A stretch of 64,000 nt of DNA, taken from an uncultured Gemmatimonadales bacterium. Its GTDB lineage: Bacteria; Gemmatimonadota; Gemmatimonadetes; Gemmatimonadales; GWC2-71-9. Both the position numbers and the translations under genes were made by a program. The stretch spans positions 343,075 to 407,074 of the forward strand of contig CAWEWK010000005.1 of NCBI GenBank assembly GCA_963812755.1, given 5' to 3'. Shown piece by piece: positions 228 to 57,350 of this stretch (positions within the stretch are counted from its first letter, which is position 1; each line of letters opens with the position of its first letter). The notes below the pieces were generated by a model that saw only the letters and a program-made list of their open reading frames with translations, did no database searches and had not been told where the DNA came from.

Positions 228-3218
228 ATGTCTGAAACCATCGGTCGGCGGCGCTTCCTCACCGTGCTCGGCGCGTCCACCGGCGGCGGAGCGCTGGCGC
301 TGAGCGGGTGCTCCACCGACCGGGTACAGAAGCTGGTGCCGTACCTGGTACAGTCGGAGGACCAGGTTCCGGGGCTCGCCACCTGGTACGCCAGCACCTG
401 CACCGAGTGTTCCGCCGGGTGCGGCCTTCACGTACGGACCCGGGAAGGGCGGGCGGTGAAGCTGGAGGGGAACCCGGAGCATCCGGTCAATCAGGGCAAG
501 CTCTGCTCCCGAGGCCAGGCCGGGCTTCAGGGACTTTACAACCCCGGCCGGATCAAGGGCCCGATGCAGCGGGCCGCCGATGGCACCTTCCAGGAGATCA
601 GCTGGGATAACGCGATCGCCTTATTTGCCTCCAAGCTGACCGAAGCCGGCAATCGGGTCGCGGTGATCTCGGGCGCGGGGAAGGGCACCTTCTCGGATCT
701 GCTCGCGGAGTGGACGGCGGCAGTGGGTGGTCGTCTGGTTCGTTACGAGCCGTTCGACCACGAGCCGCTGAGGGCGGCGAATCGTCAGATCTTCGGGATC
801 GACCAACTTCCGGCCTACGATTTCAGTCGAGCCAAGTACATCGTGTCCTTCGGGGCCGATTTCCTGGAGAGCTGGCTGTCCCCGATCGAGAATCAGCGCG
901 GCTTTGCCCAGGCGCACGGGTTCGAAGGGGGCGACGTGGCCAAGTTCGTCTATGCCGGGCCACGGATGGACCTCACTGGTCTCAACGCCGACGAGTGGCT
1001 GTCGATCCGTCCCGGCTCCGAGGCAGCCTTGGCGTTGGCCATGGCCAACGTACTCCTGGGCGAACGAGGCGGTGCCGGGGCCGGGCTGGCTGGGGCCCTC
1101 GCGCCGTATACCCCGGCGATGGCCGCGCAGGAAACCGGCCTCCCGGCACAGACCATCGAGCGCATTGCCCGGGAGTTCGGTGCCGCAGCGCCCAGCCTCG
1201 CGGTTGCCGGCGGCGTGGCCGCTCAGCACGCCGCCGCCTCCGAGCTCTGCGCCGCGGTGAACGTGCTCAACTTCGTTGCCGGCAATGTGGGTGAGACGGT
1301 GCGTTTCGGGGCCGAGCTTCCCGCCGGCGACGGCTTTGCGGCCCTGGCGCAGCTGGGTCAGGCAATGGGTTCCGGGGAAGTCGGGCTGGTGCTGATTCAC
1401 GACGCCAATCCGGCGTACGCGGTGCCCAAAGCGGCGGGGTTCGCCGAGCAGCTGGGAAAGGTGGGGTTCAAGGTCTCGACGTCGCTCTATCTGGACGAAA
1501 CCAGCGCCCTCTGCGACCTCCTCCTGCCCCAACACCACGCGCTGGAGCGGTGGGACGATCTTCGCCCGCGGGCCGGGGTGTTCAGCCTGATGCAGCCGGT
1601 GATGGAGCCGGTATTCAACACCATGCCGGCCGGTGACGTCCTGCTCAAGGTGGCGCAGAAGACCGGCGGACCGCTGGCCCGTTTCAACGCGCCCTCCTAC
1701 CAGGCGCATCTCAAGTCCCGCTGGCAGGCGCTCGCGGGCGAGCAGGGTCAGGGCAGCTTCGACGCCTTCTGGCGGTCGGCGCTTCAGCGGGGCGGCGTAT
1801 TTCGGGATGCGCCGGCTCCACCGACGGTGTCACTCTCCCTCAGCGAGGCCCGGGTCTCATACACCAAGCCGGCATTCGAGGGTGACGGCGAATTCGTGCT
1901 CCTGGCATATCCTCACGCGATGCTGCACGACGGTCGCGGTGCCAACAAGCCATGGCTGCTGGAGAACGCCGACCCCGTCACCAAGATCGCCTGGCAATCC
2001 TGGATCGAGGTAAGCTCGGGAACGGCTCGCCGGCTCGACATCCGCAACGGGGAGATTCTCCGGATCACCACGGCCCGGGGTAGCCTCGAGGCGCCGGCCT
2101 TCGTCTATCCCGGCCTGCGCGACGACGTCGTCGCGGTTCCTCTCGGCCTGGGCCACACGGCGTACGGGGCCTTTGCCAAGGGTAGGGGGATCAACGCCCT
2201 CGATCTGCTGGGTGCGCCCAAGGGCGATTTCGTTCCCTATCTCTCGACCCGAGTGAGACTGGAAAAGACCGGCGGCTACCGGAAGCTCGCGTCGGTTGCC
2301 GGGGTGCCCCGCCAGCTCGGCCGAGGGATCGCCGAGGCGATTCCGCTGGCTGCTGCGCAAAAGGGGCTCACCGTCGAGCAGGCGTACCTCGAAGAGGGTC
2401 ACGGCAAGCACGAAGTCAATCCCGAGCGGGAGCTGGAGGCGCTCAAGGGATGGTCCGAGACTCAACACCGGGCCACCCAGCACGGCGACTACGCGAACGA
2501 GCATCCTCAGTGGGGGATGACGATCGACCTGGCGAAGTGTACCGGCTGCCAGGCGTGCGTCACCGCCTGCTACGCGGAGAACAACATCCCCACCGTGGGC
2601 GAGGAAGAGATCCTCCGCGGCCGGGAGCTCACCTGGATGCGGATCGAGCGCTATTGGGAGGGCGGGGAAGAGCCGGGTGAGCCGGTATCGGCGCGCTTCA
2701 TTCCGATGCTCTGCCAGCATTGCGCCAACGCGCCGTGCGAGCCGGTCTGCCCGGTGTACGCCGCGTACCACACCGCCGACGGGCTCAACGGGCAGGTCTA
2801 CAACCGCTGCGTGGGCACCCGCTACTGCGCCAATAACTGTCCCTACAAGGTCCGCTACTTCAACTGGTACAAGTACAACGAGATGGCGTGGCCGGAGCCG
2901 TTACACCTCCAGCTCAACCCCGATGTGACGGTTCGGGCTCGGGGTGTCATGGAGAAGTGCACCTTCTGCATCCAGCGCATCCGGGGAGCCCAAAACCAGG
3001 CCCGGCTGGAAGACCGGCAACTGCAGGATGGCGAATTCACCACTGCCTGCGCCCAGGCCTGTCCCTCTGACGCGATCGTCTTCGGCAATGTGCGCAACCC
3101 GGACAGTCAGGTGGCCCGCCGGAAACAGGACCCCCGGGGGTATCGGGTGCTGGAGGAGATCAACGTCAGGCCGGCGGTCACCTATCTGGCCAAAGTCATG
3201 CATTCGGCGGAGGCCTAA
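228..3218 (+). CDS. actB: Alternative complex III subunit ActB (molybdopterin-oxidoreductase-like domain fused to a 4Fe-4S ferredoxin domain)
   Basis: 996-aa ORF. Twin-arginine signal GRRRFLTVLGAS. N-terminal Cys cluster CTECSAGC. C-terminal CxxCxxCxxxCP ferredoxin motifs (CTGCQACVTAC, CQHCANAPCEPVCP, CVGTRYCANNCP). Confidence 0.92.
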   Translation: MSETIGRRRFLTVLGASTGGGALALSGCSTDRVQKLVPYLVQSEDQVPGLATWYASTCTECSAGCGLHVRTREGRAVKLEGNPEHPVNQGKLCSRGQAGLQGLYNPGRIKGPMQRAADGTFQEISWDNAIALFASKLTEAGNRVAVISGAGKGTFSDLLAEWTAAVGGRLVRYEPFDHEPLRAANRQIFGIDQLPAYDFSRAKYIVSFGADFLESWLSPIENQRGFAQAHGFEGGDVAKFVYAGPRMDLTGLNADEWLSIRPGSEAALALAMANVLLGERGGAGAGLAGALAPYTPAMAAQETGLPAQTIERIAREFGAAAPSLAVAGGVAAQHAAASELCAAVNVLNFVAGNVGETVRFGAELPAGDGFAALAQLGQAMGSGEVGLVLIHDANPAYAVPKAAGFAEQLGKVGFKVSTSLYLDETSALCDLLLPQHHALERWDDLRPRAGVFSLMQPVMEPVFNTMPAGDVLLKVAQKTGGPLARFNAPSYQAHLKSRWQALAGEQGQGSFDAFWRSALQRGGVFRDAPAPPTVSLSLSEARVSYTKPAFEGDGEFVLLAYPHAMLHDGRGANKPWLLENADPVTKIAWQSWIEVSSGTARRLDIRNGEILRITTARGSLEAPAFVYPGLRDDVVAVPLGLGHTAYGAFAKGRGINALDLLGAPKGDFVPYLSTRVRLEKTGGYRKLASVAGVPRQLGRGIAEAIPLAAAQKGLTVEQAYLEEGHGKHEVNPERELEALKGWSETQHRATQHGDYANEHPQWGMTIDLAKCTGCQACVTACYAENNIPTVGEEEILRGRELTWMRIERYWEGGEEPGEPVSARFIPMLCQHCANAPCEPVCPVYAAYHTADGLNGQVYNRCVGTRYCANNCPYKVRYFNWYKYNEMAWPEPLHLQLNPDVTVRARGVMEKCTFCIQRIRGAQNQARLEDRQLQDGEFTTACAQACPSDAIVFGNVRNPDSQVARRKQDPRGYRVLEEINVRPAVTYLAKVMHSAEA

Positions 3219-4592: not shown

Positions 4593-5117
4593 TGGCGCTC
4601 CTCAAACGCTCCCGAGTGCCTGGTGTGCTGGCCTCCTTCGTTCACGTGGATGCGGCGGCCGACGCGATTCGGGCCCTCCGGGCAAAGGGCATTCGCGAAC
4701 CTGGTAGTGTACACCGCGGCCCCCAATCACGAGATCGAGGAGGCGCTCAATCACCGGGTGAGCCCGGTGCGGCTCTTCACCTTGATCGGGGGGCTCACCG
4801 GATGCGCCGCCGGTTTCGGCATGACGCTCTGGATGTCGCACGACTGGCCGCTCGTGGTCGGTGGGAAACCCATCGGATCGATCCCTCCGTATGTCGTCAT
4901 CGCGTTCGAGCTGACCATTCTCATGGGTGCGCTGAGCACGGTGGCCGCGGTGGCGCTCTTCACGATTCTGATGGGCAAGCGGGGAATCGCCTACGACCCC
5001 CAGTTCAGCGACGACAAGATCGGAGTGTTCGTGAAGGCGGGCGCCGACCAGCTGCAATCGATCGAAGAGCTGTTGCGTTCCGCGGGGGCGGTGGAGGTAC
5101 GTCATGAAGCGGCGTAG
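4592..5117 (+). CDS. actD: Alternative complex III subunit ActD (DUF3341-like), interrupted by a +1 frame break near 4697-4701
   Basis: ATG at 4592 gives MALLKRSRVPGVLASFVHVDAAADAIRALRAKGIRE in frame 2. The family-typical continuation LVVYTAAPNHEIEEAL...TM helices is in frame 0 (the track ORF 4623..5117). The junction reads gaa-c-ctg. Confidence 0.75.
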
Positions 5118-5799: not shown

Positions 5800-7161
5800 G
5801 TCCTACGACCATCCATCGAAGGCTGGTGGAGCGCTCCCTGGCCGGGCGGTACGATCTGTTTCTCGGGGTCGGCGGAGGGCTGGCGCTGCTGGGACTGATT
5901 CTCTTCGTCGGTGCGCTCTCGGGCAACGCCGCCGATCGCGCCTGGCAGTTGTTCCACGTCAACTGGCTGTATTTCACCGGCCTCGCCGCCGGGAGCGTCG
6001 CTTTTGCCGCAGTGCAGAAGATCACCAACGCGAAGTGGTCCGGAATGGTGATCCGGTTTGCCGAGGCTTCGGTGGCCTTTCTGCCGGTGTCGCTGGTGGC
6101 CCTGGTGTTGACCTTTACCCTGGGGTACCAGGCGGTCTACGGGCCGATGCAGACGGCGATGCACGAGCTGGGGCATGATAAGGCGGTCTGGCTCTCCCAG
6201 GGATTCATGTTCGCCCGGTTGGGGATCGGGCTGGCTCTGCTTGACGCTGGTAGGGTGGCGGCTGGTGCGGGCCGACATGGTTCCGGACATGTTTGCCGTC
6301 CGTGGGGTCGCCGGCGGCGCTCGCACCTCCCGCTTCGACCGCTGGACCCGTCACTACGACGGCGAACCGGCAACCGCCGCGGCGCAGGAGGCGTACATCC
6401 ACCGGATGGCGCCGACGTATGTGGTGCTGTACGTCATCGTTCTCACCATGGTGGCCTTCGACGGAATCATGGCCCTCCAGCCGCATTGGTTCTCCAATCT
6501 CCTGGGCGGCTTCTTCTTCATGGGGTCGTTCCTCGGCGGCCACATGCTGCTCGCGCTCCTCATGCTCTACGGTTCGTCCCACCTTGGCGTGGCCGACCTG
6601 GTCTCACCCAAACAGCGGCACGATCTGGGGAAGCTGTGTTTCGGCTTCACCGTATTCTGGACCTACCTGATGTGGGCTCAGTTCCTGGTGATTTGGTACG
6701 GCAATCTTCCGGAGGAGACCGGCTTCGTCTTTGCGCGGCTGTGGGGGCACTGGCTTCCGGTGGCGCGGGCCGTGCTCATTGGGATGTTCATCGTTCCCTT
6801 CTTCGGGCTACTGGGCGTGGCTCCGAAGAAGGTCCGGGTCACCCTGGCCTTCTTCGCAACCGTGAGTCTGGTCTCCTTGTGGTTGGAGCGGTATCTGCTG
6901 GTGATGCCTTCGGTGAGCGCCCTGCCCGGTCCCCGCTTTGGGCTTCCTGAGATCGGTCCGACGCTCTTGCTCGCCGGCCTCTACCTGCTGTCCTACGCGC
7001 TCTTCGCCCGGACCTTCCCCATGATCTCGCCGCGCTTGGCGGAGATCACCCTCGACCGCGAGCGCGGCCACGCCGTCGGTGCCGGCGAGTTCGAGCACGA
7101 GGAGGGCCCGGCCGACTACGTGCCCCCGGAGCTGATCGAGCGGAGGGAGAAGCCGAGGTAG
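5796..7161 (+). CDS. actF: Alternative complex III subunit ActF (second NrfD-like membrane subunit), interrupted by a +1 frame break near 6240
   Basis: ATG 5796 (ATGA overlap with actE) opens a hydrophobic N-terminus to ...FARLGIGLALL in frame 0. The membrane protein continues TLVGWRLVRADM... to 7161 in frame 1 (track ORF 6175..7161). Confidence 0.75.
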
Positions 7162-7280
7162 GCTATTGGCTATCGGCTATCGGCTATCAGTTACTCCATA
7201 TAAACGACCCTCCGATGATAGCCCTCGGAGGGTCGTTTTGCTGCGGAGTAGCTGATAGCCGATAGCCGATAGCCGATAGC
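7161..7280. repeat. Long inverted repeat built from GGCTATC heptamers, enclosing an inner terminator hairpin
   Basis: Left arm 7161-7197 (GGCTATT GGCTATC GGCTATC GGCTATC AGTTACTCC) is the reverse complement of right arm 7245-7280 with about 2 mismatches. The arms abut the actF stop and the anti-sigma stop. Confidence 0.85.
7206..7240. terminator. Bidirectional intrinsic terminator between convergent actF and the anti-sigma gene
   Basis: GACCCTCCG (7206-7214) pairs with CGGAGGGTC (7226-7234) around an 11-nt loop, followed by GTTTTG. T-rich on the other strand too. Confidence 0.75.
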
Positions 7281-8290
7281 TACTTACTTCTCATCTCCGC
7301 GTTGATCCTTCGAATCATCGCTCGCAGGCTGTCGGACGGGAGCGCGCCGGTGATGGCGAGCATGCGGTCGCCCAACTGCATCGCCATGGCCTGATCGGCT
7401 CCGGTCCCTATCAACCCGCGGAGATCATTCGACACCGCGAGGGAGTCGGATCCCGCCCGGCGGGCAAGGAGTTGGGAGACGTCGGTCGCGGGACCCTCGA
7501 TGGTCTGGATCACCTGGCCCGAGGAGAGCTGCTGCGCCACGACCATCAAGGGGCGCTTACCCTGATCGCTGGCGTGGACCTGTACATCCACCACGGGAAG
7601 GCCATCGATGTGGGGGAGTCGCTCTCCCGCCTCGGCAGTGGCCCCGTCCCACGACATGGTGCGCCACTGTCCCTTGGGCTCCGGGACTGTCTGGTCACTC
7701 TCCGGCTTTCCCGCCGCCAGGCTGGAAGGAGCAACGGGGTCGAGCACCGCCAGCGCCACGGCTCGAGCCGAATCGCGATTGGGAGCCGGTGCCGGCTTGG
7801 TCTCACGTGCCGCCACCGCGGGCGCGGAGTCGCGGCGCGGGTGAGGGGAAACCGCCCTCGGGGCGGGAACCTCGGATTCGGACACTCGGGCCAATGCAGC
7901 GGGAGCGGCCGGAGCAGCGGATTCCCGCGCCACCGTAGGAGGAGAGGAGGAGTCGGCGGAGCGGTCCCCGGTCAGGTAGCTCGCGATCCATCCCATTCCC
8001 ACAGCCCCCACCAGGCTCGCCGCCCAAGCGGCTCGGTGGATCCGGCGGCGGCGCTCCGAGGCCTGCGCGGCGGCGCGACGCCGAAGCACCTCAAAGGCCG
8101 GTGGCACGCCGCGCGGCGGGGCCAAGCGCGCGAGCAACGCGGTGGTCCGGTCGCGCAGCGCCGCGATGGTGTCGCGGGCGGACTGGCACGAGGGGCAGCC
8201 GGCGAGATGGCTCTCGATCTCGACGCACTGCGTGCGGCTCAGCCCCTGGTCCAGATAGGCGTGCAGCTCTTCTTCAGGAATGTGCCGCAT
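7280..8290 (-). CDS. Anti-sigma factor (zf-HC2 type) with a Pro/Ala-rich linker and C-terminal domain
   Basis: N-terminus MRHIPEEELHAYLDQGLS...HLAGCPSCQ (HxxxCxxC zinc-finger anti-sigma motif). Overlaps the 3' end of the ECF sigma gene. Confidence 0.8.
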   Translation of the reverse strand: MRHIPEEELHAYLDQGLSRTQCVEIESHLAGCPSCQSARDTIAALRDRTTALLARLAPPRGVPPAFEVLRRRAAAQASERRRRIHRAAWAASLVGAVGMGWIASYLTGDRSADSSSPPTVARESAAPAAPAALARVSESEVPAPRAVSPHPRRDSAPAVAARETKPAPAPNRDSARAVALAVLDPVAPSSLAAGKPESDQTVPEPKGQWRTMSWDGATAEAGERLPHIDGLPVVDVQVHASDQGKRPLMVVAQQLSSGQVIQTIEGPATDVSQLLARRAGSDSLAVSNDLRGLIGTGADQAMAMQLGDRMLAITGALPSDSLRAMIRRINAEMRSK

Positions 8291-8860: not shown

Positions 8861-9559
8861 CTATGACGGCCGCCGCTTCTTCCGTTTTGACCTGGGCCCG
8901 AAGACGCATCCGGGGTGTAGCCCCCGCCCCTTCGGTGGCCATTCGGTACAAAGATCCGGCTTGGCCGGCCGGCCGTCGGCCCGCTGCCGGCCGTGGAGCG
9001 CACAGGCAATGCCATCGTCCGCCAGGTATCCGCAGGCGGAAATGACCTCCACGTCCAGGGAGAAGTCCCCTTCCCGCTCCACCTTACAGAGATACGGCGA
9101 GCGTCTGGACCGCACCAGTGCCTCCAGCCTGCGCTCCGACTTGGTGCACATGATCTCCAGCTGAAGATCCCGGCAACAGGCTGCACCTACTCGGTTGTCC
9201 GAGGTGCGACAGGCGGCTTCGGCACAGGGATTAGCGCCATTGATCACCGGCAGCGCGCGAGCAGGCGCGGGCGGGGGCGGGGGACCAAGGCGGCGGTGGA
9301 CGATCTCCATGCCCTCGATCAGGAAAAATCGATCCCGGCCCAACTGGCGGAGCTGCTCAAAGCGGCGAGGAGCGCGCGGTAGCGGGCGGCGGAACCCATG
9401 AGCCCGGCATCCGGCCTCTTGCCCGTCCTGGTATAGGTAGCGGCAGCCGATGTGGAGCACCGCGTCGACGTAAAGATCCCCTTCCGATTCCCACAACTCG
9501 CCGAAGGTAATCCGTTCGGTATGTCCCAGGAGCCACGTGGCTTCATGATCGAGCGACAT
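8861..9559 (-). CDS. Cys-rich hypothetical protein (possibly a YkgJ-like metal/Fe-S binding protein)
   Basis: ORF with many Cys, including a ...AACCRD... cluster. Start chosen at MSLDHE (9559), but upstream in-frame ATGs at 9622 and 9682 are possible. Confidence 0.5.
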   Translation of the reverse strand: MSLDHEATWLLGHTERITFGELWESEGDLYVDAVLHIGCRYLYQDGQEAGCRAHGFRRPLPRAPRRFEQLRQLGRDRFFLIEGMEIVHRRLGPPPPPAPARALPVINGANPCAEAACRTSDNRVGAACCRDLQLEIMCTKSERRLEALVRSRRSPYLCKVEREGDFSLDVEVISACGYLADDGIACALHGRQRADGRPAKPDLCTEWPPKGRGLHPGCVFGPRSKRKKRRPS

Positions 9560-26618: not shown

Positions 26619-26836
26619 GGCAGTCGCCACAGTTGTGGGTCTGTCGCACAGGTATGATCCTCGCCACGCTGGTAGCTAAGTCCATATAGACTAAGCAGCT
26701 ACGCTGACAACGCGGAGTCTGCGACAGCCCTCCGGAGATTGGCACGGCTCTGGCGCATGGGGGGCGTTAACCTGGTCACGCGCATCAAACCCGTCGGCTC
26801 CCTAGACACTCGTCGCTCTTGGGCCGGAATCATTCT

Positions 26837-28171
26837 ATGCGATCAATCGGTAAACTGGCTGTCGTAACCGGAACGCTGGTGCTGGCCGCGGCGTGTAGTG
26901 ATGGCGGCGTCACCCCGCCGCCGGACAACACAGCGCCGGTGGCAAACTTCGCGGTGCCGCCATGCGCCATCGACCTGGCCTGTGACTTTGCCAGCACCAG
27001 CACCGATGATGCCCAGGTGACGGAATGGAGCTGGGATTTCAATGGCGACGGCAATCCGGACGCGACCACGGCGACTGCGGGGTTCACCTATGGCACTGCC
27101 GGGGATTTCAACGTCAGCCTGACGGTCCGTGATGCTGAGGGCTTGAGCGACACCAAGACCAGCACCATAACCATCGCACCCGCCAATAACCCACCGCCGC
27201 CGCCTCCCCAGAACTCGGCTCCGGTGGCCGACTTCGCCGTGCCGCCATGCACCATCAACGTGGCCTGTGACTTTGCCAGCACCAGCACTGATGATGCCCT
27301 GGTGACGGAATGGAGCTGGGATTTCGATGGCGACGGGAACCCTGACGCGACCACGGCGACTGCGGGGTTCACCTATACTGCTGCCGGGGATTTCAACGTC
27401 AGCCTGACGGTCCGTGATGCTGAGGGTTTGAGCAACACGAAGACCAGCACCGTGACCATCGCACCTCCTCCGGTCAACACGCCACCGACTGCGGGGTTCA
27501 CCCACAACTGTACTGCGACCAACTGCAGCTTCATCAGCACCAGCACGGACGCAGCCCCAGGCAGCATCACTATCTACGCGTGGACCTTCGGAGATGGTGC
27601 GACTGCCGATGTGAATAGTCCGTCGCATGGCTACGCGGTTACCGCCACCACCGACTTCACCGTCACGCTCACCGTGACCGACAACGAGGGCGCCACCGAC
27701 GTCGAGACCCAGACGATCACCGTGTCACCGCCGCCGCCGGTGGCCCAGGGTTGCACGACCTCAGGCGATCACGTGGAATGTGTTCTGGACATCACGGCCC
27801 GGTCCACCATCAAGCTCAAGCTGCTGGGGATCAGCTGCGAGCTCCTGGGGGAGCGAGTCGTCATTCCGGCGCCGATCGGGGACCAGGTCTTCTTAAACGT
27901 GTGCTCGAGGACCGTCGGCGATTCGACCAAGATCTTCGGCGGCGTCGCCGATACCGCGGTGGTGTTCGAGGCGGGCAGTCAGGTGCGAATCCGGTTCGTC
28001 CAGGGCACACCGGCTCGGGGTGATCCGACGCCAGGTCCTCCGGCTGCGAACTTTGTGGGGAGCTTTCCCAACTGGACGATCAATTTCGAAGATGGCGGCA
28101 ATCCGGGCGGAGCAGGCGAGCCGGATTTCAGCGACGTCGTGCTCGGAGTGGAGGCTGTAGCCAAGCCGTAG
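26837..28171 (+). CDS. Lipoprotein with three PKD-like domains and a distinct C-terminal domain
   Basis: Lipobox LAAACSDGG. Repeated ...WSWDF(N/D)GDGNPD...FNVSLTVRDAEG... PKD signatures. Confidence 0.8.
   Translation: MRSIGKLAVVTGTLVLAAACSDGGVTPPPDNTAPVANFAVPPCAIDLACDFASTSTDDAQVTEWSWDFNGDGNPDATTATAGFTYGTAGDFNVSLTVRDAEGLSDTKTSTITIAPANNPPPPPPQNSAPVADFAVPPCTINVACDFASTSTDDALVTEWSWDFDGDGNPDATTATAGFTYTAAGDFNVSLTVRDAEGLSNTKTSTVTIAPPPVNTPPTAGFTHNCTATNCSFISTSTDAAPGSITIYAWTFGDGATADVNSPSHGYAVTATTDFTVTLTVTDNEGATDVETQTITVSPPPPVAQGCTTSGDHVECVLDITARSTIKLKLLGISCELLGERVVIPAPIGDQVFLNVCSRTVGDSTKIFGGVADTAVVFEAGSQVRIRFVQGTPARGDPTPGPPAANFVGSFPNWTINFEDGGNPGGAGEPDFSDVVLGVEAVAKP
26933..27466 (+). repeat. Near-identical 285-bp-period internal tandem duplication (PKD domains 1 and 2)
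   Basis: 26933-27181 and 27218-27466 align base-for-base with only scattered substitutions. Confidence 0.85.
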
Positions 28172-28414
28172 CCGTGCCGGAGCTCGCAAGGTGGGCCACT
28201 CTTGCGGGCCTACTTCGAATCTCGGGGGCGAGGGGTGCCGAGATCGGTAGCTTCTGCCACCTCGCTTGACATCCGCTTGACGGAGCTTGAGCAGGTTCGT
28301 CTTGCTTCTCGCGGCGCAACGGCATGTAAGCGGCGCTCGCTGAGCGGCGCCAACGGGCGGCTCGCCATGGCTCCACCTCAGCCCGCTGGTTCCTCGGAGC
28401 CAAGGTGGGTTCCC

Positions 28415-29653
28415 ATGCGATTACATACCCCGTTTGCCAATGCGGCACACGGAGCGCCAGCGTACGGTTGGCCCTCTCTGCGCCGGCTCGCTCCGATTCT
28501 CCTGGCGGCCGCCGTGGGCTGCCGGGAGGACGCCGAGTCACCGACCGCCCCAGAGGCCACGCCACTCGCCGCCAGCGCCACACATGCGCTGGCATTCTTC
28601 CAGGTAAGCGCAGGCCAGCTACACACCTGCGGCGTAACTACCGACAATCGCGCTTATTGTTGGGGCGAGAACGGGCAGGGCCAGCTCGGGAACGGTTCGA
28701 CGACCGACCGCCTGACTCCAGTAGCCGTCTCCGGCACGCGCCGCTTCCGCCAGGTGAGCGCGGGCGATCACTTTACCTGCGGCGTGACCACGGACTACCG
28801 GGCTTACTGCTGGGGCCAGGGCTTTGCCGGCGAGCTCGGAGACGGTACGGGCACCAACCGCCTCACGCCTGTCCCGGTGGCTGGCGGGCAACGGTTCCGC
28901 CAGGTGGACGCGGGTCTCTTCCACACCTGCGCCGTGAGTTACCCAGACAACCACGCCTATTGCTGGGGCTACAACGGCGACGGCGAGAGCGGCGACGGCA
29001 CGACCACCAGTCCCCGCTTGGCGCCGGTGGCGGTCAACGGAGGGCGTGAGTTCCGTCAGGTGCAGGCCGGCGGCCGCCACACCTGCGGCGTGACGACATC
29101 GCGCGAGGCCTTCTGTTGGGGGGAGAACCTGCAAGGCCAAATCGGTGACGGCTCGGCGGGTTCCCCGCGTCTGACGCCCACCCTGGTGGCGGGAGGGCGC
29201 CGGTTCCTCCAAGTGGACGTGGGCTGGTCCCACAGCTGCGGCGTGACCCCCAATGACCGAGCCTTCTGCTGGGGATATGGCGGCAATGGACAAGTGGGCG
29301 ATGGGAGCAGCACACGGCGCGTGACGCCGGTCCCAGTCGCCGGCGGGCTCAGCTTCGAACGCGTGAGCGCGGGCTATCACCACACCTGCGGCGAGACCAC
29401 GTTGAACCGCACCTACTGCTGGGGAAACAATGACGGCGGCCAGCTGGGCGACGGTACGACGATCACTCGGCTAACGCCAGTCGCGGTCGGCGGCGGCCTC
29501 TTCTTCAGCCAAGTGAGTGCGGGCGACCTGCACACCTGCGGGAAAACCCCGGCCGCCGTAGCCTATTGCTGGGGCGCAGGTGGCAGCGGCCGGCTCGGCA
29601 ACGGCTCGACCAATAATCGCTTGAGGCCGGTCCCGGTCGCCGGCGGCAACTAG
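28415..29653 (+). CDS. RCC1-repeat (beta-propeller) lipoprotein
   Basis: Seven or more repeats of HTCG(V)T..xxAYCWGxNxxGQLGDG. Candidate lipobox LAAAVGC after ATG 28415. Confidence 0.82.
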   Translation: MRLHTPFANAAHGAPAYGWPSLRRLAPILLAAAVGCREDAESPTAPEATPLAASATHALAFFQVSAGQLHTCGVTTDNRAYCWGENGQGQLGNGSTTDRLTPVAVSGTRRFRQVSAGDHFTCGVTTDYRAYCWGQGFAGELGDGTGTNRLTPVPVAGGQRFRQVDAGLFHTCAVSYPDNHAYCWGYNGDGESGDGTTTSPRLAPVAVNGGREFRQVQAGGRHTCGVTTSREAFCWGENLQGQIGDGSAGSPRLTPTLVAGGRRFLQVDVGWSHSCGVTPNDRAFCWGYGGNGQVGDGSSTRRVTPVPVAGGLSFERVSAGYHHTCGETTLNRTYCWGNNDGGQLGDGTTITRLTPVAVGGGLFFSQVSAGDLHTCGKTPAAVAYCWGAGGSGRLGNGSTNNRLRPVPVAGGN

Positions 29654-30644: not shown

Positions 30645-31055
30645 ATGAGCACGCTGGAACGGGGAAAGATTGACCCGATCGTGCCGGTATTGGGCTCACC
30701 CCCGCTCCACGACCTCGGGTGGCTCTATGAACCCAAGTTTGATGGCTGGCGCGGGACGCTCTACCTGGACGGGCACTCCACGTACATCCGATCGAAGCGC
30801 GGCAATGTGCTACGCAGGTTCGGGGAGTTGGCTGGGCGGGTGAGGGCGGAGCTGGGGGTGAGGGACGCCATTCTGGACGGCGAGGTAGTAGCGCTCGATG
30901 ACGACGGCCAAATGTCCTTTAATGCTCTCGAGCGCGTCGACGCTGACGGCATGAGCGAGGAGATTACGACCCCGCTGGCTCGGGGTTCCTGGCCTCGGTT
31001 GGCAGATGCGCGAGTTCTAACCTTGCCGCCTGGCGACCAGATGGCCTATGTATGA
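30645..31055 (+). pseudogene. ATP-dependent DNA ligase N-terminal fragment (copy L0)
   Basis: ...VPVLGSPPLHDLGWLYEPKFDGWRGTLYLDGHSTYIRSKRGNVLRRF...LDGEVVALDDDGQMSFNALE, then unrelated sequence. Homologous to copies at 42978, 44661 and 49556. Confidence 0.75.
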
Positions 31056-40536: not shown

Positions 40537-40749
40537 ATGGAATCAACTGATCGTCAACGCTGGGCGCGGGTACCGCCCGGCCAGGCATGGAAACACCCGG
40601 GTCTGCCTGTCGATTGGGTAAGGGTTCTTGGTGAGCATCCGGAAGGGGATGAGGCGCTCCCTGGCTACGTCTGGCTGGACATGCCGGGGAAGGTGCGGCA
40701 TGTCGGCGAGCACGAGCTGGAGTTCACGGACGAGCGGCCGGCGGTCTGA
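40537..40749 (+). CDS. Hypothetical protein
   Basis: 70-aa ORF. Confidence 0.35.
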   Translation: MESTDRQRWARVPPGQAWKHPGLPVDWVRVLGEHPEGDEALPGYVWLDMPGKVRHVGEHELEFTDERPAV

Positions 40750-40767
40750 TCCCTTTGCTGACTACGC

Positions 40768-40935
40768 TCGACAGACGGCGTACCGGCCCATAGTTCAATC
40801 CCTACGACCCCCGACAAAGGCACACCCGGCGAAAGCGCGGGCCGAAAGCCACGGGTCCTTGCCTCCTCCGCGACGCCGCCTTACGCCCAGCCCCGACGCC
40901 ACGAAGGATCCACGACCGCCAGCCCAGTGGAGATC
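40768..40935 (+). promoter_or_regulatory. Promoter plus structured leader, copy P1 (degenerate; no ligase upstream)
   Basis: TCGACA(40768)-N17-TAGTTC(40791), then CGACAAAGGCACACCCGGCGAAAGCGCGGGCCGAAAGCCACGGGTCC...GACGCCACGAAGGATCCACGACCGCC. ATG of the next ORF at 40938. Confidence 0.6.
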
Positions 40936-40937
40936 CC

Positions 40938-41623
40938 ATGGACAGGAACGCTGCCGCCGAGGCCGAATATCAGCTGCAGAAGATTCTCACCGTGGAAGCA
41001 TCAAAGCGGACCTTCGCCCTACCCTGGCTATCGGAAAGCGATCGCTGGAAGGAACTCGTTTTTGCATTGTTCACGAGCGCAGTGACTACCCAGAAGAGCA
41101 CCTCCGGGAGATCGTCGATAATCTGTACGATCTTGGACTGCTAAGAATCGACCTGTTAGCCGAAGTGAGCATCCCTAAACTGCAATCCGAGCCCGTCGAT
41201 CGTCTAAGCGCCCACTTTCTCGCCTTTCTTCAAGAGCACGGTTTTTCCCAACAGGAAAGTGAACGTCTCCTGACCATAGTATCGGAAGCTGCGAGTGCAC
41301 TGTCGCAGCAGTTCGATGGCAAGATTCAAAAATACCTCCGCAAGTATGGGGAACTCATGTTGAAAGAAGTTCCCGCTCTATTTCACTTCACGACAATCAA
41401 CAGCGATCAGATCGGGCACGCATTTACGTACTGGTTTCAGAATGTGCTCAATATGCCTCTGTCGTTGGTAGACTCGAACATCGTTGCTTTCTGCCAGGAC
41501 AATGGATTCGAGGTCGCAAATCTGATTGCTGCTGCCGACCGCCTTGACGTGAATCTCGCTCTCCTGGATGACCTGGTATACCTGAAGCTCAAGACTCAGG
41601 AGGCCGACCTAGCGCGAGCATAG
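40938..41623 (+). CDS. Hypothetical protein (weak HhH-GPD/glycosylase-like pattern), frame break near 41060-41090
   Basis: MDRNAAAE...SESDRWKELVFALFT in one frame, SDYPEEHLREIVDNLYDLGLL...VDSNIVAF... in another. Lower-GC patch. Confidence 0.45.
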
Positions 41624-42844: not shown

Positions 42845-42977
42845 CATCTAGCCGTTTGTCTTCCGCTAGCCTAGACTAACCAGTAACGGCCCGCCTTAGG
42901 ACTCGGGCCGGAACCGTGTGACCCCTCGTCGTGGAGAGGCCAGCCGGCAGCTTTCGCGCTGCCCGGAGCCGCCACGA
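42845..42977 (+). repeat. Ligase-upstream module U, copy a
   Basis: CATCTAGCC(42845)...CCTAGACT(42870)...CCCTCGTCGTGGAGAGGCCAGCCGGCAGCtttcgcGCTGCCCGGAGCCGCCACGA, then the ATG. Confidence 0.8.
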
Positions 42978-43613
42978 ATGAGCCCGCGCACCACAGGACC
43001 CTTCCACCGTTGAGCCGATCGTCCCGGTATCGGGCTCACCCCCGATGAACGACCCCCAATGGCTCTACGAGCCCAAGTCGATGGCTGGCGGGGAATACTC
43101 TACCTCAGCGGTCGGGAGTGCTATATCCGCTCCAAGCGGGGGAATCTGCTACGTCGGTTCGCGGAGCTCGCCGAGCAGGTCAGATCCGAGATGTCGGTGA
43201 GTGATGCCATCTTGGACGGCGAGGTCGTGGCGCTCGATGACGAGGGGCGCATGAACTTCCGTGCCCTCCAACACGGCCGCGGGTGGCTGCACTACGCCGC
43301 CTTTGACGTGCTCTGGCTCCACGGGAAGGACCTGAGAGCCCAGCCGCTCACCCGGCGGAAGCGGCGCCTGGAGGGTCTCATTCCGAGGACCACTCCAACG
43401 CTCTCTCGGGTGCTCGCTGTGGAGGAGTACGGGCGGGAGTTGTTCGAGGCAGCCCAGAGGCTTGACTTGGAGGGCATCGTGGCGAAGCGAAAGCGCGACT
43501 CCTATTCGCGGCAGACTACCTGGTACAAGGTGAAGAATCCGGCGTATACACAGACGGAGGGGCGAGGAGACCTGTTCTATAAGCCTCGTTCACCTGCCCG
43601 GAAGTTGTCTTGA
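42978..43613 (+). pseudogene. OB-less ATP-dependent DNA ligase (nucleotidyltransferase domain only), copy L1, at least 2 frame breaks
   Basis: The ATG frame stops after 11 codons. VEPIVPVSGSPPMNDPQWLYEPK is in a second frame and VDGWRGILYL...LDGEVVAL...AFDVLWLHG...EGIVAKRK...WYKVKN...* in a third (motifs I, III, IIIa, IV, V). Confidence 0.8.
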
Positions 43614-43781
43614 CAAGCTCTGTACCGGTCCGTATCTCACTTCTGCCATCCCTCGACAAAGGCACACCCGGCGAAAGCCGGGGCCGCAAAGCCACGGGTC
43701 CTCGCCGCCCTCCGCGACGCCGCACGGTACTTCCGCCTGACGCCACAAAGGACCCACGACCGCTGAGCTGCCGAAGGGTGG
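43610..43781 (+). promoter_or_regulatory. Promoter plus structured leader, copy P2 (best preserved)
   Basis: TTGACA(43610, containing the ligase TGA)-N17-TATCTC(43633). CCCGGC-GAAA-GCCGGG hairpin, CGCAAAGCC, GGGTCC...GGACCC helix. CCATCCCTCG (43647) is complementary to CGAAGGGTGG (43772) in 9 of 10 positions. Confidence 0.65.
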
Positions 43782-43840
43782 CTAGGTCTGTCCGCTCATT
43801 TCGTAAACCTTTCAAGACAGCCTCTTCCCACGGGGTCCTT

Positions 43841-44435
43841 ATGCATCCGGCACGGCGCTTTGTTCCGCTCACACTCGCAGTATTCGTCCTAAGCTGTCAG
43901 GATGGCAATGGTCCTACTCCTGCCGAAAGCGCGCCCGTGGCGGGGCAACCTTCGGCGGCACAGATTGTCGACCGAACCCGCTTTTTCGACGGATTCCTCG
44001 TCCACCACACACCACAGTTGACCTTTACCGTAGGCCTGGTTGATCCCCTGGAAGCTCTCCCAGAGTGCGGCGGCACCGGCGAACTTGTCGAAACTGATAC
44101 CAGAGGCTTTGACCAGAAAGTGTTCACACCACCGGGTCCCATCAGACAGGTTCGACGCTTCACGGGAACCATCGCCCTTTACGATGTCCCACTCCTTCCA
44201 GAGGGAGGACTTGTGCAACCTGATCGGCCACCTCGTTGGAACCGGTCCAGGCACCTTTACTAGCACCGACAACAGCCTAACGGGTGTGGGCCCGGGCACG
44301 AACGCGTTCGGCTTCATGGCCAATGCTATTCTGACTCTGACTGATGGCAGCAAAGCGAAGTTCAGGGCCATCGTGCGGTTCGTTGGCGAGGATCTCATTG
44401 TCGAAGATCTCACGGTGACCCCGATCGGCAACTGA
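43841..44435 (+). CDS. Lipoprotein of unknown function, frame break near 44190-44215
   Basis: MHPARRFVPLTLAVFVLSCQDG lipobox. The C-terminal half (…GHLVGTGPGTFTSTDNSLTG…DLTVTPIGN*) is in track ORF 44040..44435. Confidence 0.55.
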
Positions 44436-44542: not shown

Positions 44543-44660
44543 CATCTAGACTGCTTTTCAGTACCAGCCTATAGTCTGATTAGCGGCCTCTCGGCCGCGC
44601 CGTCAGCCCTCGTCGTGGAGAGGTAGTCGGCAGCATTGTCGCTGCCCCGGAGCCGCCACG
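44543..44660 (+). repeat. Ligase-upstream module U, copy b
   Basis: CATCTAGAC(44543)...CCTATAGTCT...CGTCAGCCCTCGTCGTGGAGAGGTAGTCGGCAGCattgtcGCTGCCCCGGAGCCGCCACG. Confidence 0.8.
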
Positions 44661-45094
44661 ATGAGCGCGCGTACCAAAGCACTTCCCACCTCGAGCCGAT
44701 CCTCGTGGTCACGGGCTCACCCCCGCTGCATGATCCCAACTGGATCTATGAGCCTAATTTCGACGGCTGGCGTGGAACCTTGTATCTGGATAGGCACTCC
44801 TCCTACATCCGCTCCAAGAGGGGGAACGTGCTACGCCGGTTCTGGGAGCTGGCCGGGCAGGTCAGGGCGGAGCTAGGTGTGAGAGACGCCGTTCTGGACG
44901 GTGAGGTGGTGGCACTCGATGACGAAGGCCGAATGTCCTTTAATGCTCTTCAAGTCGGGCGCGGATGGCTGCACTCCGTCGCCTTCGACCTGCTGTGGCT
45001 GAACGGACGAGACATGCGGGCTGAGCCGCTCTCACGGCGGAAGCGCCGATTGGAGGGACTGATCCCAACCAACAATGCGACCGTCTCACGCTGA
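44661..45094 (+). pseudogene. ATP-dependent DNA ligase fragment, copy L2 (frame break after the ATG; truncated after about 150 aa)
   Basis: The ATG at 44661 is out of frame with the body EPILVVTGSPPLHDPNWIYEPNFDGWRGTLYL... Motif I reads NFDG instead of KFDG. Ends ...LIPTNNATVSR* without motifs IV and V. Confidence 0.78.
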
Positions 45095-45228
45095 GATCTC
45101 TGCCGAAGCTCGGGCCGCTGCCTACGAAGGTCCGTTTGACAGACTCATCTGGCTACTGCCAGGCCACCCACCACGGGCGATCGACCTCCGGCTAGAGTCG
45201 GCCGCAGCCTGATAACGAAACCTTTCGG

Positions 45229-49427: not shown

Positions 49428-49555
49428 CATCTAGACGGCCGCCCGGTAGGGGCGTAGAATCTCCCTTAGCGACCCAGTAGCAGGCCGCGTCACCGTCTTA
49501 GCCCTCGTCGTGGAGAGGCAGCCGGCATCTATTGCGCTGCCCGGAGCCACCACGA
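49428..49555 (+). repeat. Ligase-upstream module U, copy c
   Basis: CATCTAGAC(49428)...CGTAGAATCT...GCCCTCGTCGTGGAGAGGCAGCCGGCATCtattgcGCTGCCCGGAGCCACCACGA. Confidence 0.8.
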
Positions 49556-50144
49556 ATGAGCCCCCGCACCACCAAAACCCTTCCCCTCGTCGAGCCGGTC
49601 GTCCCGGCGCTGGGCTCACCCCCGCTGCACGATTCGAAGTGGATCTACAAACCAAAGTTCGATGGCTGGCGTGGGACGCTCTATCTGGACGGCCACTCCA
49701 CGTACATCCGCTCGAAGCGGGGCAATGTGCTACGCAGGTTCTGGGAGCTGGCTGGGCGGGTAAGAGCGGAGCTGGGGGTGAAGGACGCCATTCTAAGACG
49801 GCGAGGTGGTGGCGCTCGATGACGAAGGCCGCATGTCCTTTAATGCTCTCCAAACTGGCCGGGGATGGCTGCACTACGTTGCCTTCGACTTGCTGTGGCT
49901 GAACGGACAGGACATGCGGGCTCAGCCGCTCACTCGGCGGAAGCGTCGATTGGGGGGACTGATCCCGACCAACAATGCGACCCTATCCCGGGTGCTCGCC
50001 GTGGAGGAGCACGGGCGGGAGTTGTTCGAGGCAGTGCAGCGGCTACGCGATCCCTACGCTCAGCAGACCGTGTGGTACAAAGTGAAGAACCCGGCCTACA
50101 CTCAGGCTGAGGGGCGAGGCGACCTGTTCCACAAGGCTCGCTGA
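49556..50144 (+). pseudogene. ATP-dependent DNA ligase, copy L3 (1-nt insertion near 49790; motif IV region deleted)
   Basis: MSPRTTKTLPLVEPVVPALGSPPLHDSKWIYKPKFDGWRGTLYLDG... is in frame from the ATG. A break at DAIL|DGEVVAL (ctaagacggc versus ctggacggc in L0). ...AVQRL-RDPYAQQTVWYKVKN lacks EGIVAKRK. Confidence 0.8.
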
Positions 50145-50167: not shown

Positions 50168-50300
50168 TTGACAGCCTCCGTACCCGCCTGTAGTTCATCC
50201 TACCAACCCTCGACAAAGGAACACCCGGCGAAAGCCGGGGCCGCAAAAGTCTCGGGCTCCTCCTCCGCGACGCTACCTCCGACGCCACGAAGGACCTTAA
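50168..50300 (+). promoter_or_regulatory. Promoter plus structured leader, copy P3
   Basis: TTGACA(50168)-N17-TAGTTC(50191). CGACAAAGGAACACCCGGCGAAAGCCGGGGCCGCAAAAGTC...GACGCCACGAAGGACC. Confidence 0.6.
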
Positions 50301-50369
50301 GATCGCCGAACTGCGCCATGATGGTCTTCGACGGATAGACTCGCAACGCGTTGCGAAAGGAGATTTCCA

Positions 50370-56367: not shown

Positions 56368-56486
56368 CATCTAGACTAACTCGAAGGCCCGGCTAATCCC
56401 CGGGCCCCAAGCCAGTTCGAGCCTCTTCGTGGAGAGGCAGCCGGCAGCTCTGCGCTGCCCGGAGCCGCCACTAATGAGCCCGCGCC
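56368..56486 (+). repeat. Ligase-upstream module U, copy d, with only the first 4 or so ligase codons
   Basis: CATCTAGACT(56368)...CCTCTTCGTGGAGAGGCAGCCGGCAGCtctgcGCTGCCCGGAGCCGCCACTAATGAGCCCGCGCC, then homology ends. Confidence 0.75.
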
Positions 56487-56581: not shown

Positions 56582-56665
56582 TTGACAGGAAGTGTACCCG
56601 CCCGTAAATCGATCCTACGATCTCCTCGATAAAGGCACGCCCGACGAAAGCCGGGGTCGCGGTGT
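56582..56665 (+). promoter_or_regulatory. Promoter plus leader, copy P4 (leader truncated/diverged after the GAAA hairpin)
   Basis: TTGACA(56582)-N17-TAAATC(56605). CTCGATAAAGGCACGCCCGACGAAAGCCGGGGTCGC. Confidence 0.55.
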
Positions 56666-56764
56666 TCTGTCGGGATATATCCTGCCAGTCAGATTCGTGC
56701 TATTTGTCCGTGTAGGTGCGCCGGGGGAACCCGGCATTGTTGGCAAAAGGAACAGGAGGTTACC

Positions 56765-57178: not shown

Positions 57179-57350
57179 CATCTAGACGACTCCTTCGAAC
57201 CAACCTAGACTCTGAATACCGGCCCCAATAGCCGCCAGCCCGTCAGCCCTCGTCGTGGAGAGGCAGCCGGCAACTCTACGCTGACCCGGAGCCGTCCGCG
57301 ATGAGTTCACGCACCAAAGCACTTCCACCCGTTGGTTGTACCCCCGCTGA
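57179..57350 (+). repeat. Ligase-upstream module U, copy e, plus a degenerate ligase start (L5)
   Basis: CATCTAGAC(57179)...CCTAGACT(57204)...CGTCAGCCCTCGTCGTGGAGAGGCAGCCGGCAAC...ATG(57301)AGTTCACGCACCAAAGCACTTCC..ACCCCCGCTG, then diverges. Confidence 0.7.

Follow-up and report, generated by a model that had tools for sequence, protein, structure and literature searches.

We analysed a window of 64,000 nt from an uncultured Gemmatimonadales bacterium (contig CAWEWK010000005.1, positions 343,075 to 407,074 of the forward strand), in which a promoter-led leader sequence recurs in four copies, here called P1 to P4. By its sequence, copy P2 genuinely belongs to the cyclic di-GMP (c-di-GMP) class I riboswitch family. 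We consider it likely that P2 is a complete, promoter-driven aptamer with a canonical ligand pocket, with c-di-GMP as its predicted ligand, and that it belongs to a predicted ON-switch family; the gene that it is predicted to control encodes a lipoprotein. P2 adds a member to a riboswitch class that is already thoroughly characterised, and there is little in it that is new in kind. The features of the P2 locus, in coordinates of the window, are:

43610-43638, plus strand: promoter of P2, with the -35 box TTGACA at 43610-43615, a 17-nt spacer and the -10-like sequence TATCTC at 43633-43638.
43652-43776, plus strand: complete c-di-GMP-I-type aptamer, copy P2, matched by Rfam family RF03167 and by the lineage model R1.
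43701-43757, plus strand: insert specific to the lineage, located distally in hairpin 2, from alignments A2 and A3.
43763-43786, plus strand: hairpin of the putative expression platform, CUGAGCUGCC-GAAG-GGUGGCUAGG, from folding.
43841-44435, plus strand: lipoprotein gene downstream of P2 (MHPARRFVPLTLAVFVLSC...), recognised by its signal sequence and its homologues.

The assignment of P2 is carried by covariance models. When the whole window was scanned with Rfam at gathering thresholds, P2 was the sole match, with 59.3 bits on RF03167 (c-di-GMP-I-GGC; gathering score 59, E 1.9e-11) and an alignment covering model positions 1-80 of 80. A second family of clan CL00126 also scored at least its own gathering score at P2 and was masked by clan competition. 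We also used a covariance model, R1, built from 31 leaders of other genomes without any window sequence. P2 matched R1 over its full length with 106.5 bits (E 5e-29), and the R1 search of the window returned no copies beyond P1-P4. An initial annotation, made from the letters of the window, had proposed a leader of c-di-GMP-I (GEMM-I) type that a covariance model should recognise. P2 does reach the gathering threshold, and this match agrees with the R1 score, the pocket and the orthologous leaders described below. The elements that the annotation had read in the sequence (TTGACA, a spacer of 17 nt, the leader, four copies) are all present. It had limited the resemblance to the 5' half, which proved too narrow, as the match includes the 3' strand, the helix P1 that closes the aptamer and the equivalent of C92 in the Vibrio cholerae aptamer Vc2.

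The P2 aptamer begins with CUCGACAAAGGCACACCCGGCGAAAGCCGGGGCCGCAAAGCCACGGGUCC, about 13 nt past TATCTC, and ends at 43776 (...GAGCUGCCGAAG / ...GACCGCUGAGCUGCCGAAG). In the model alignments helix P1, formed by C43652, C43654 and G43655 with G43776, G43773 and C43772, encloses two hairpins. The first (43662-43687) carries a GNRA-type loop, GAAA, at 43673-43676, and at the base of the second (43690-43769) AGCC-CGG-GUC pairs with GAC-CUG-AGCU. The same arrangement of helix P1 and two hairpins is found in RF01051 and in Vc2, as are the core AAAGGCA(A/C)ACC-stem-GAAA-stem-GGG(A/C)CGCAAAGCC, the contacts G20, A47 and C92 and an interhelical C-G pair. RF01051 members further resemble P2 in being 5' leaders placed straight after a promoter and in their association with surface or envelope genes. 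P2 differs from RF01051 and Vc2 in the internal loop of hairpin 1, which is ACA/GCC and not AAA/GAC (a variant also common in ordinary members), and in hairpin 2, which has a C42.A mismatch or internal loop. It also differs from them in having, instead of the CUAAG/UAUG receptor hairpin, an insert of the 50-70 nt type with its own distal helix: the RF01051 consensus CUAAggccc...gggcuAuGac is replaced in P2 by 43701-43757. The initial annotation had likewise seen no obvious tetraloop receptor. The ACA/GYC internal loop of hairpin 1 was considered as a marker of the lineage and was rejected, as it is also common in receptor-bearing aptamers.

The positions of the ligand pocket were read off the Rfam and R1 alignments in Vc2 numbering. 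In Vc2, G20, A47 and C92 contact c-di-GMP, and the interhelical C-G pair (C44-G83) is universally conserved (PMC4744006). One guanine of the ligand is recognised by G20 at its Hoogsteen edge, and the other is Watson-Crick paired with C92 (PMC6140456). The equivalent positions in P2 are 43661 (G20), 43685 (C44), 43688 (A47), 43762 (G83) and 43771 (C92), and all contact nucleotides known from structures with c-di-GMP are kept. C43685 (in GGGGC-C-GC) and G43762 (in GAC-CG-CUG) stand at the aligned positions and would form the interhelical pair. With the canonical G20, A47 and C92 and the C-G pair, P2 is predicted to sense c-di-GMP.

RF03167 is the top Rfam family for P2 and its close relatives, which could mean that P2 belongs to the c-di-GMP-I-GGC class, with an altered pocket and a ligand other than c-di-GMP. 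We find this very unlikely. From the model consensus we infer that "GGC" names positions 20, 47 and 92: the RF03167 consensus has GCGAAg where RF01051 has GCAAAg, so that position 47 is G and not A. P2 reads GCAAAG, with A at 43688, and does not have the G that defines the RF03167 variant. An A was also present at position 47 in every RF03167 match inspected, including the receptor-less leaders L011, L093, L095, L065, L025, L021, L022, L032 and L016, which score 60-80 bits on this family. The second hairpin of the RF03167 consensus is, like that of P2, without the CUAAG...UAUG receptor hairpin, so that receptor-less aptamers with a canonical pocket score better on RF03167, and this accounts for its higher score at P2. 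The "GGC" label at P2 appears to mark the missing receptor hairpin and not an altered pocket, and matches to RF03167 should not be taken in annotation as altered ligand specificity. The possibility that P2 senses 3'3'-cyclic GMP-AMP (3'3'-cGAMP; GEMM-Ib type) had been raised by the initial annotation, and such aptamers share the overall fold family. However, riboswitches of the cGAMP class carry an A where Vc2 has G20 (PMC6140456), whereas P2 has G43661 and a G is invariant here in the sub-family alignments. A cGAMP sensor is therefore extremely improbable.

The P2 RNA would be transcribed from its own conserved promoter and start a few nucleotides 5' of helix P1. The -35 box of P2 overlaps the stop codon of an upstream ligase pseudogene, which is described below. 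A promoter reading TTGAC(A/G/C), exactly 17 nt, TAnnn(C/T) and stopping some 10-12 nt short of the aptamer was found in 29 of 34 relatives, and those of P2, P3 and P4 fit this pattern; the -35 box of copy P1 is TCGACA. The C that ends the -10 box keeps a generic sigma-70 scan from calling the P promoters. The P promoters as predicted here are supported by their conservation across relatives. Most relatives also carry GTACC at a fixed place in the 17-nt spacer, and the motif is present in the window at 43622-43626, 50180-50184 and 56594-56598. A second subgroup of relatives has GGACC at this position. The spacer motif GTACC may bind a regulator or may be part of an extended promoter.

Leaders related to P2 were collected with two patterns. 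The first, a generic pattern of the 5' half applied to the genome collection, retrieved ordinary c-di-GMP-I aptamers from many phyla, which formed a reference set; among the matches listed, those nearest to P2 were L116 and L016, in metagenome-assembled genomes (MAGs) of Gemmatimonadales. The second pattern, applied to metagenomes, yielded about 27 unique leaders whose match to P2 extends from the promoter through helix P1. No match was obtained when viral contigs were scanned for the leader. The sub-family of P2 was found in Gemmatimonadales MAGs and in soil-type metagenomes. Its members have an invariant GAAA loop, no canonical tetraloop receptor and, in place of the receptor hairpin, a conserved insert of 50-70 nt in the distal region of hairpin 2. 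The arms of this insert are conserved (CUCGCC..CCUCCGCGACGCC / GACGCCACRAAGGACCCAC) and its centre varies in length. The insert and the leader are non-coding: the aptamers of the relatives are 111-135 nt long and differ by non-multiples of three, and no open reading frame (ORF) with coding-like codon-position GC was found over 43614-43840. The initial annotation had also taken the segment to be non-coding. Conceivably, the insert alters the response of the aptamer through a new tertiary contact or as a second input.

Covariation was assessed in an alignment of 31 sequences with the window excluded, and the statistics are subject to the caveat that these sequences are related. The Rfam-type structure (GGUC/GACC) together with the distal helix had 94% of its cells paired and six compensatory pairs, and none of 500 shuffles scored as high. 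The distal helix (CCUCCGCG/CRCGAAGG, columns 60-68 with 102-110) was 93-94% paired, with compensatory changes in two pairs. The initial annotation had drawn a GGGUCC/GGACCC helix. This pairing is 92% compatible with the alignment and shows zero compensatory changes, and the Rfam-type GGUC/GACC pairing is supported instead; GGGUCC/GGACCC may be an alternative conformer.

A mode of regulation was suggested by the sequences downstream of the aptamer. The 3' strand of the aptamer (CGCCGAGCU) doubles as the 5' arm of a strong hairpin further downstream in about 15 of 25 relatives, and in L222, L188, L227 and L192 this competing hairpin is followed by a clear U-tract. In L243 and L240a a strand complementary to the aptamer 3' strand adjoins a GGAGG ribosome-binding site. 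Ligand binding would lock the 3' strand into the aptamer, block the downstream hairpin and turn the gene ON. Since a ligand-stabilised aptamer withholds the 3' strand, the simplest reading of the sub-family is that of an ON switch, which is what we predict from the aligned leaders. P2 keeps the competing hairpin, the 5' arm of which consists of the 3' strand of hairpin 2, C92 and helix P1, with one G.A mismatch. The P2 platform is nearly identical in the orthologous locus L241, whose gene is intact. This near-identity argues that the variant has been conserved and did not arise by random decay. With no U-tract after the hairpin, the read-out of P2 may be transcriptional or translational or may have been lost.

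In an unconstrained fold of the P2 leader, AAGGACCC (43748-43755) pairs with GGGUCCUU (43833-43840) and covers the ribosome-binding region before the AUG, and GGGUCC at 43695-43700 competes for GGGUCCUU. The complementarity between AAGGACCC and GGGUCCUU is perfect; with two sequences as its basis it is a lead only. It could represent a translational switch or a chance complementarity of purine-rich and pyrimidine-rich sequence.

The lipoprotein encoded downstream of P2 has 30 homologues of about 197-204 residues, with up to 86% identity across the leading 85% of the ORF, and it matched no Pfam family. Its orthologues in L241, L243 and L240 are preceded by the same leader (54-67 bits), and in L242 the leader is followed by a PAP2 gene and then by a homologue of the lipoprotein gene. 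In the relatives generally, the first ORF after the leader mostly encodes a lipoprotein, as judged by signal peptides, and these lipoproteins come from several unrelated families. L240 contains four leaders within 10.6 kb (4846-4970, 6121-6234, 7233-7358 and 8946-9065) and L188 two leaders within 1.6 kb (at 616 and 1608), and the small genes behind these leaders all differ. Arrays of leaders are thus a trait of the lineage and not peculiar to the window.

The other copies in the window are less complete than P2. All four share the 5' part of the leader (repeat family D6; alignment A1), and the scores of P1, P3 and P4 on RF03167, obtained at relaxed thresholds, are all below the gathering score:

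40808-40934, plus strand: copy P1, damaged aptamer (RF03167 20.1 bits, E 0.92; R1 66.8 bits).
50207-50322, plus strand: copy P3, damaged aptamer (RF03167 33.1 bits; R1 85.6 bits), with its promoter at 50168-50196.
56623-56674, plus strand: copy P4, aptamer 5' half (RF03167 28.5 bits; R1 32.5 bits), with its promoter at 56582-56610.

In copy P1 hairpin 1 has a disrupted stem, the C that precedes position 47 has been lost by deletion, and other sequence stands in place of the 3' strand, C92 and helix P1; its alignment to R1 has many flagged non-pairs, and its -35 box is mutated (40768-40773). In P3 a change from C to A breaks the equivalent of the C22-G45 pair, an extra A follows position 47, the insert is partly lost and the 3' strand of helix P1 is absent, with non-pairs also flagged by R1. 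P4 retains the 5' strand of helix P1 and hairpin 1 and continues into unrelated sequence past about 56661; its RF03167 alignment skips the middle of the model, and 73 positions of the R1 model are deleted. The initial annotation had described P1 and P4 as degenerate, which is the case; P3 is damaged too. The CGCCGAA of P3, which it had equated with UACCGA of Vc2, belongs to hairpin 2, as its 3' strand (GAUCGCCGAACU), and not to the segment with C92 and helix P1. Its suggestion that a second-messenger-controlled leader drives each of the variable downstream genes is not supported in the window, where only the P2 aptamer is intact. From their sequences, P1, P3 and P4 are unlikely to sense any ligand. 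Most likely they act only as promoters and 5' untranslated regions (UTRs), and they should not be called riboswitches. The gene after copy P1 (40938-41623) seems to be split into an ORF at 40938-41144 and the 3' part of the ORF 40628-41623, which suggests another frameshift.

Six pieces of one small ATP-dependent DNA ligase gene, all of them defective, were found in the window:

42977-43613, plus strand: ligase pseudogene upstream of P2 (ligase-derived sequence at 42923-43610), adenylation domain only (PF01068, E 9.5e-17; frame change found by tblastn).
30669-30929: ligase remnant, a fragment.
44607-45184: ligase remnant, truncated and with a change from K to N at the catalytic lysine.
49492-50141: ligase remnant, frameshifted, upstream of P3.
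56422-56485: ligase remnant, a 5' stub.
57247-57334: ligase remnant, a 5' stub.

The pseudogene at 42923-43610 has a deletion of 1 nt right after the catalytic-lysine motif, at about 43075, and some of the remnants amount merely to a 5' UTR hairpin with the start codon. L243 contains an intact ligase of 206 residues (605-1225), followed by the 3' fragment of a second ligase that runs straight into TTGACA. As L243 has the same junction as the window, the joining of ligase 3' end, promoter and leader is inherited, and the four leader copies of the window, judged from these junctions, are duplications of that unit. The ligase was also considered as a general partner of the riboswitch. In tblastn against about 240 loci, L135 was the only one with a match, joined later by L243, and the idea was rejected; the ligase belongs to the duplicated unit of the P2 lipoprotein family and not to the riboswitch sub-family overall.

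In several loci all that is left of the leader is its 3' tail (CGAGCUGCCGAAGGG with the terminator or platform), placed just behind the stop codon of another gene: L246 (about 2940-3000), L247, L248 (about 185-263) and L244/L245 (about 40-105). In L246 and L247 this tail is a clean stand-alone terminator (CGCCGAGCUGCCGACGGGGUGGCUCGGCG-UUUGUCGUUGU). Together with the 5' half in P4, these loci indicate that recombination cuts inside the leader.

A number of observations weigh against P2 as a working riboswitch. Its Rfam score is barely at the threshold, and is on the variant family RF03167. The CUAAG...UAUG tetraloop-receptor motif is absent from hairpin 2. Compared with R1, P2 has two substitutions at near-invariant helix positions, a G to A in the distal helix that gives a C.A mismatch and a C to U in hairpin 2 that gives a G.U pair, and its folding energy shows no gain in stability over shuffled sequence (z = 0.04). 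The support from covariation is modest, owing to the low variation within the sub-family. The P2 platform has no U-tract 3' of the hairpin, and the terminator scan calls none there. The lipoprotein gene, finally, has a +1 frameshift at about 44196, caused by an extra G in GAGGGAGG (GG-AGG in L241), so that tblastn finds residues 1-119 and 119-201 in two frames.

These defects could mean that P2 is the relic of a c-di-GMP riboswitch that now regulates nothing, in a locus of decaying duplicates. The atypical helix positions, the mismatched platform hairpin without a U-tract and the frameshifted gene would all fit such decay, as would the defects in every ligase copy of the window and the plain damage to P1, P3 and P4. 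However, the pocket positions and helix P1 of P2 are all intact, and L241 shares the near-identical platform with an intact gene, which argues for conservation. The lipoprotein gene shows no further damage past the frameshift, where it is still about 82% identical to its homologues. This indicates that the frameshift is either recent or an assembly error, the latter being possible as the extra G lies in a run of G. We therefore regard a relic as unlikely. A different view is that the leader is mainly a repeat at the DNA level, serving as a homology arm or recombination joint for cassette shuffling, and that its likeness to an RNA is secondary. Leaders are arrayed in the window, in L240 and in L188, and breakpoints lie inside the leader, both in P4 with its 5' half and in L248, L244/L245 and L246/L247 with their 3' tails. 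But ordinary homologous recombination between repeated leaders yields such breakpoints without a dedicated DNA function, no recombinase or transposase is present among the ORFs tested, and conservation falls exactly on the positions of the riboswitch core and pocket. This makes a primary role as a DNA repeat highly improbable. The tetraloop receptor, whose absence was listed above, is not universal among members of the c-di-GMP-I family.

The reading of P2 as a complete c-di-GMP-I aptamer in front of a lipoprotein gene places it beside the multi-GEMM regulons of Geobacter and Clostridioides, in which many leaders per genome govern the synthesis of envelope proteins or secreted ones, as those of the present sub-family would do. 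In the Bacillus cereus group the c-di-GMP riboswitch Bc1 has a terminator platform (PMC11218506), and such regulons resemble the relatives of P2 in having terminator platforms that overlap the 3' strand of the aptamer. Unlike in these regulons, the leaders described here form tight arrays with diverse small lipoprotein genes, and those of the window have been duplicated together with a ligase 3' end and in several cases broken by recombination inside the aptamer. It is conceivable, but in our opinion doubtful, that the lipoprotein arrays of Gemmatimonadales consist of shufflable cassettes, each gene standing behind the same promoter and c-di-GMP riboswitch, with the leader of about 200 nt as the homology arm along which cassettes would be duplicated, exchanged and truncated. 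If so, the repertoire of surface lipoproteins would be both variable and gated by c-di-GMP. The P2 sub-family would extend control by c-di-GMP riboswitches to a little-studied phylum, and it points to a regulon of small lipoproteins without known function, which are candidates for c-di-GMP-dependent roles at the surface or in biofilms.

With regard to the surroundings, the G+C content is 0.59-0.64 over 34000-60000, compared with 0.65-0.69 in the first 30 kb of the window. This region is rich in short ORFs without a Pfam match, repeats and pseudogenes, and is flanked by stress genes, namely those for a Mn catalase, a DUF892 protein and YflT. Its appearance is that of a plastic part of the chromosome, in which no mobility genes were found; among the window ORFs tested there were no recombinase, transposase or GGDEF/EAL genes. 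Further upstream, a gene for an RCC1-repeat protein (28202-29653), which has no leader of its own, shows 50-57% identity to the leader-borne lipoprotein of L201. It is adjoined by a gene for a PKD-domain protein (26819-28171).

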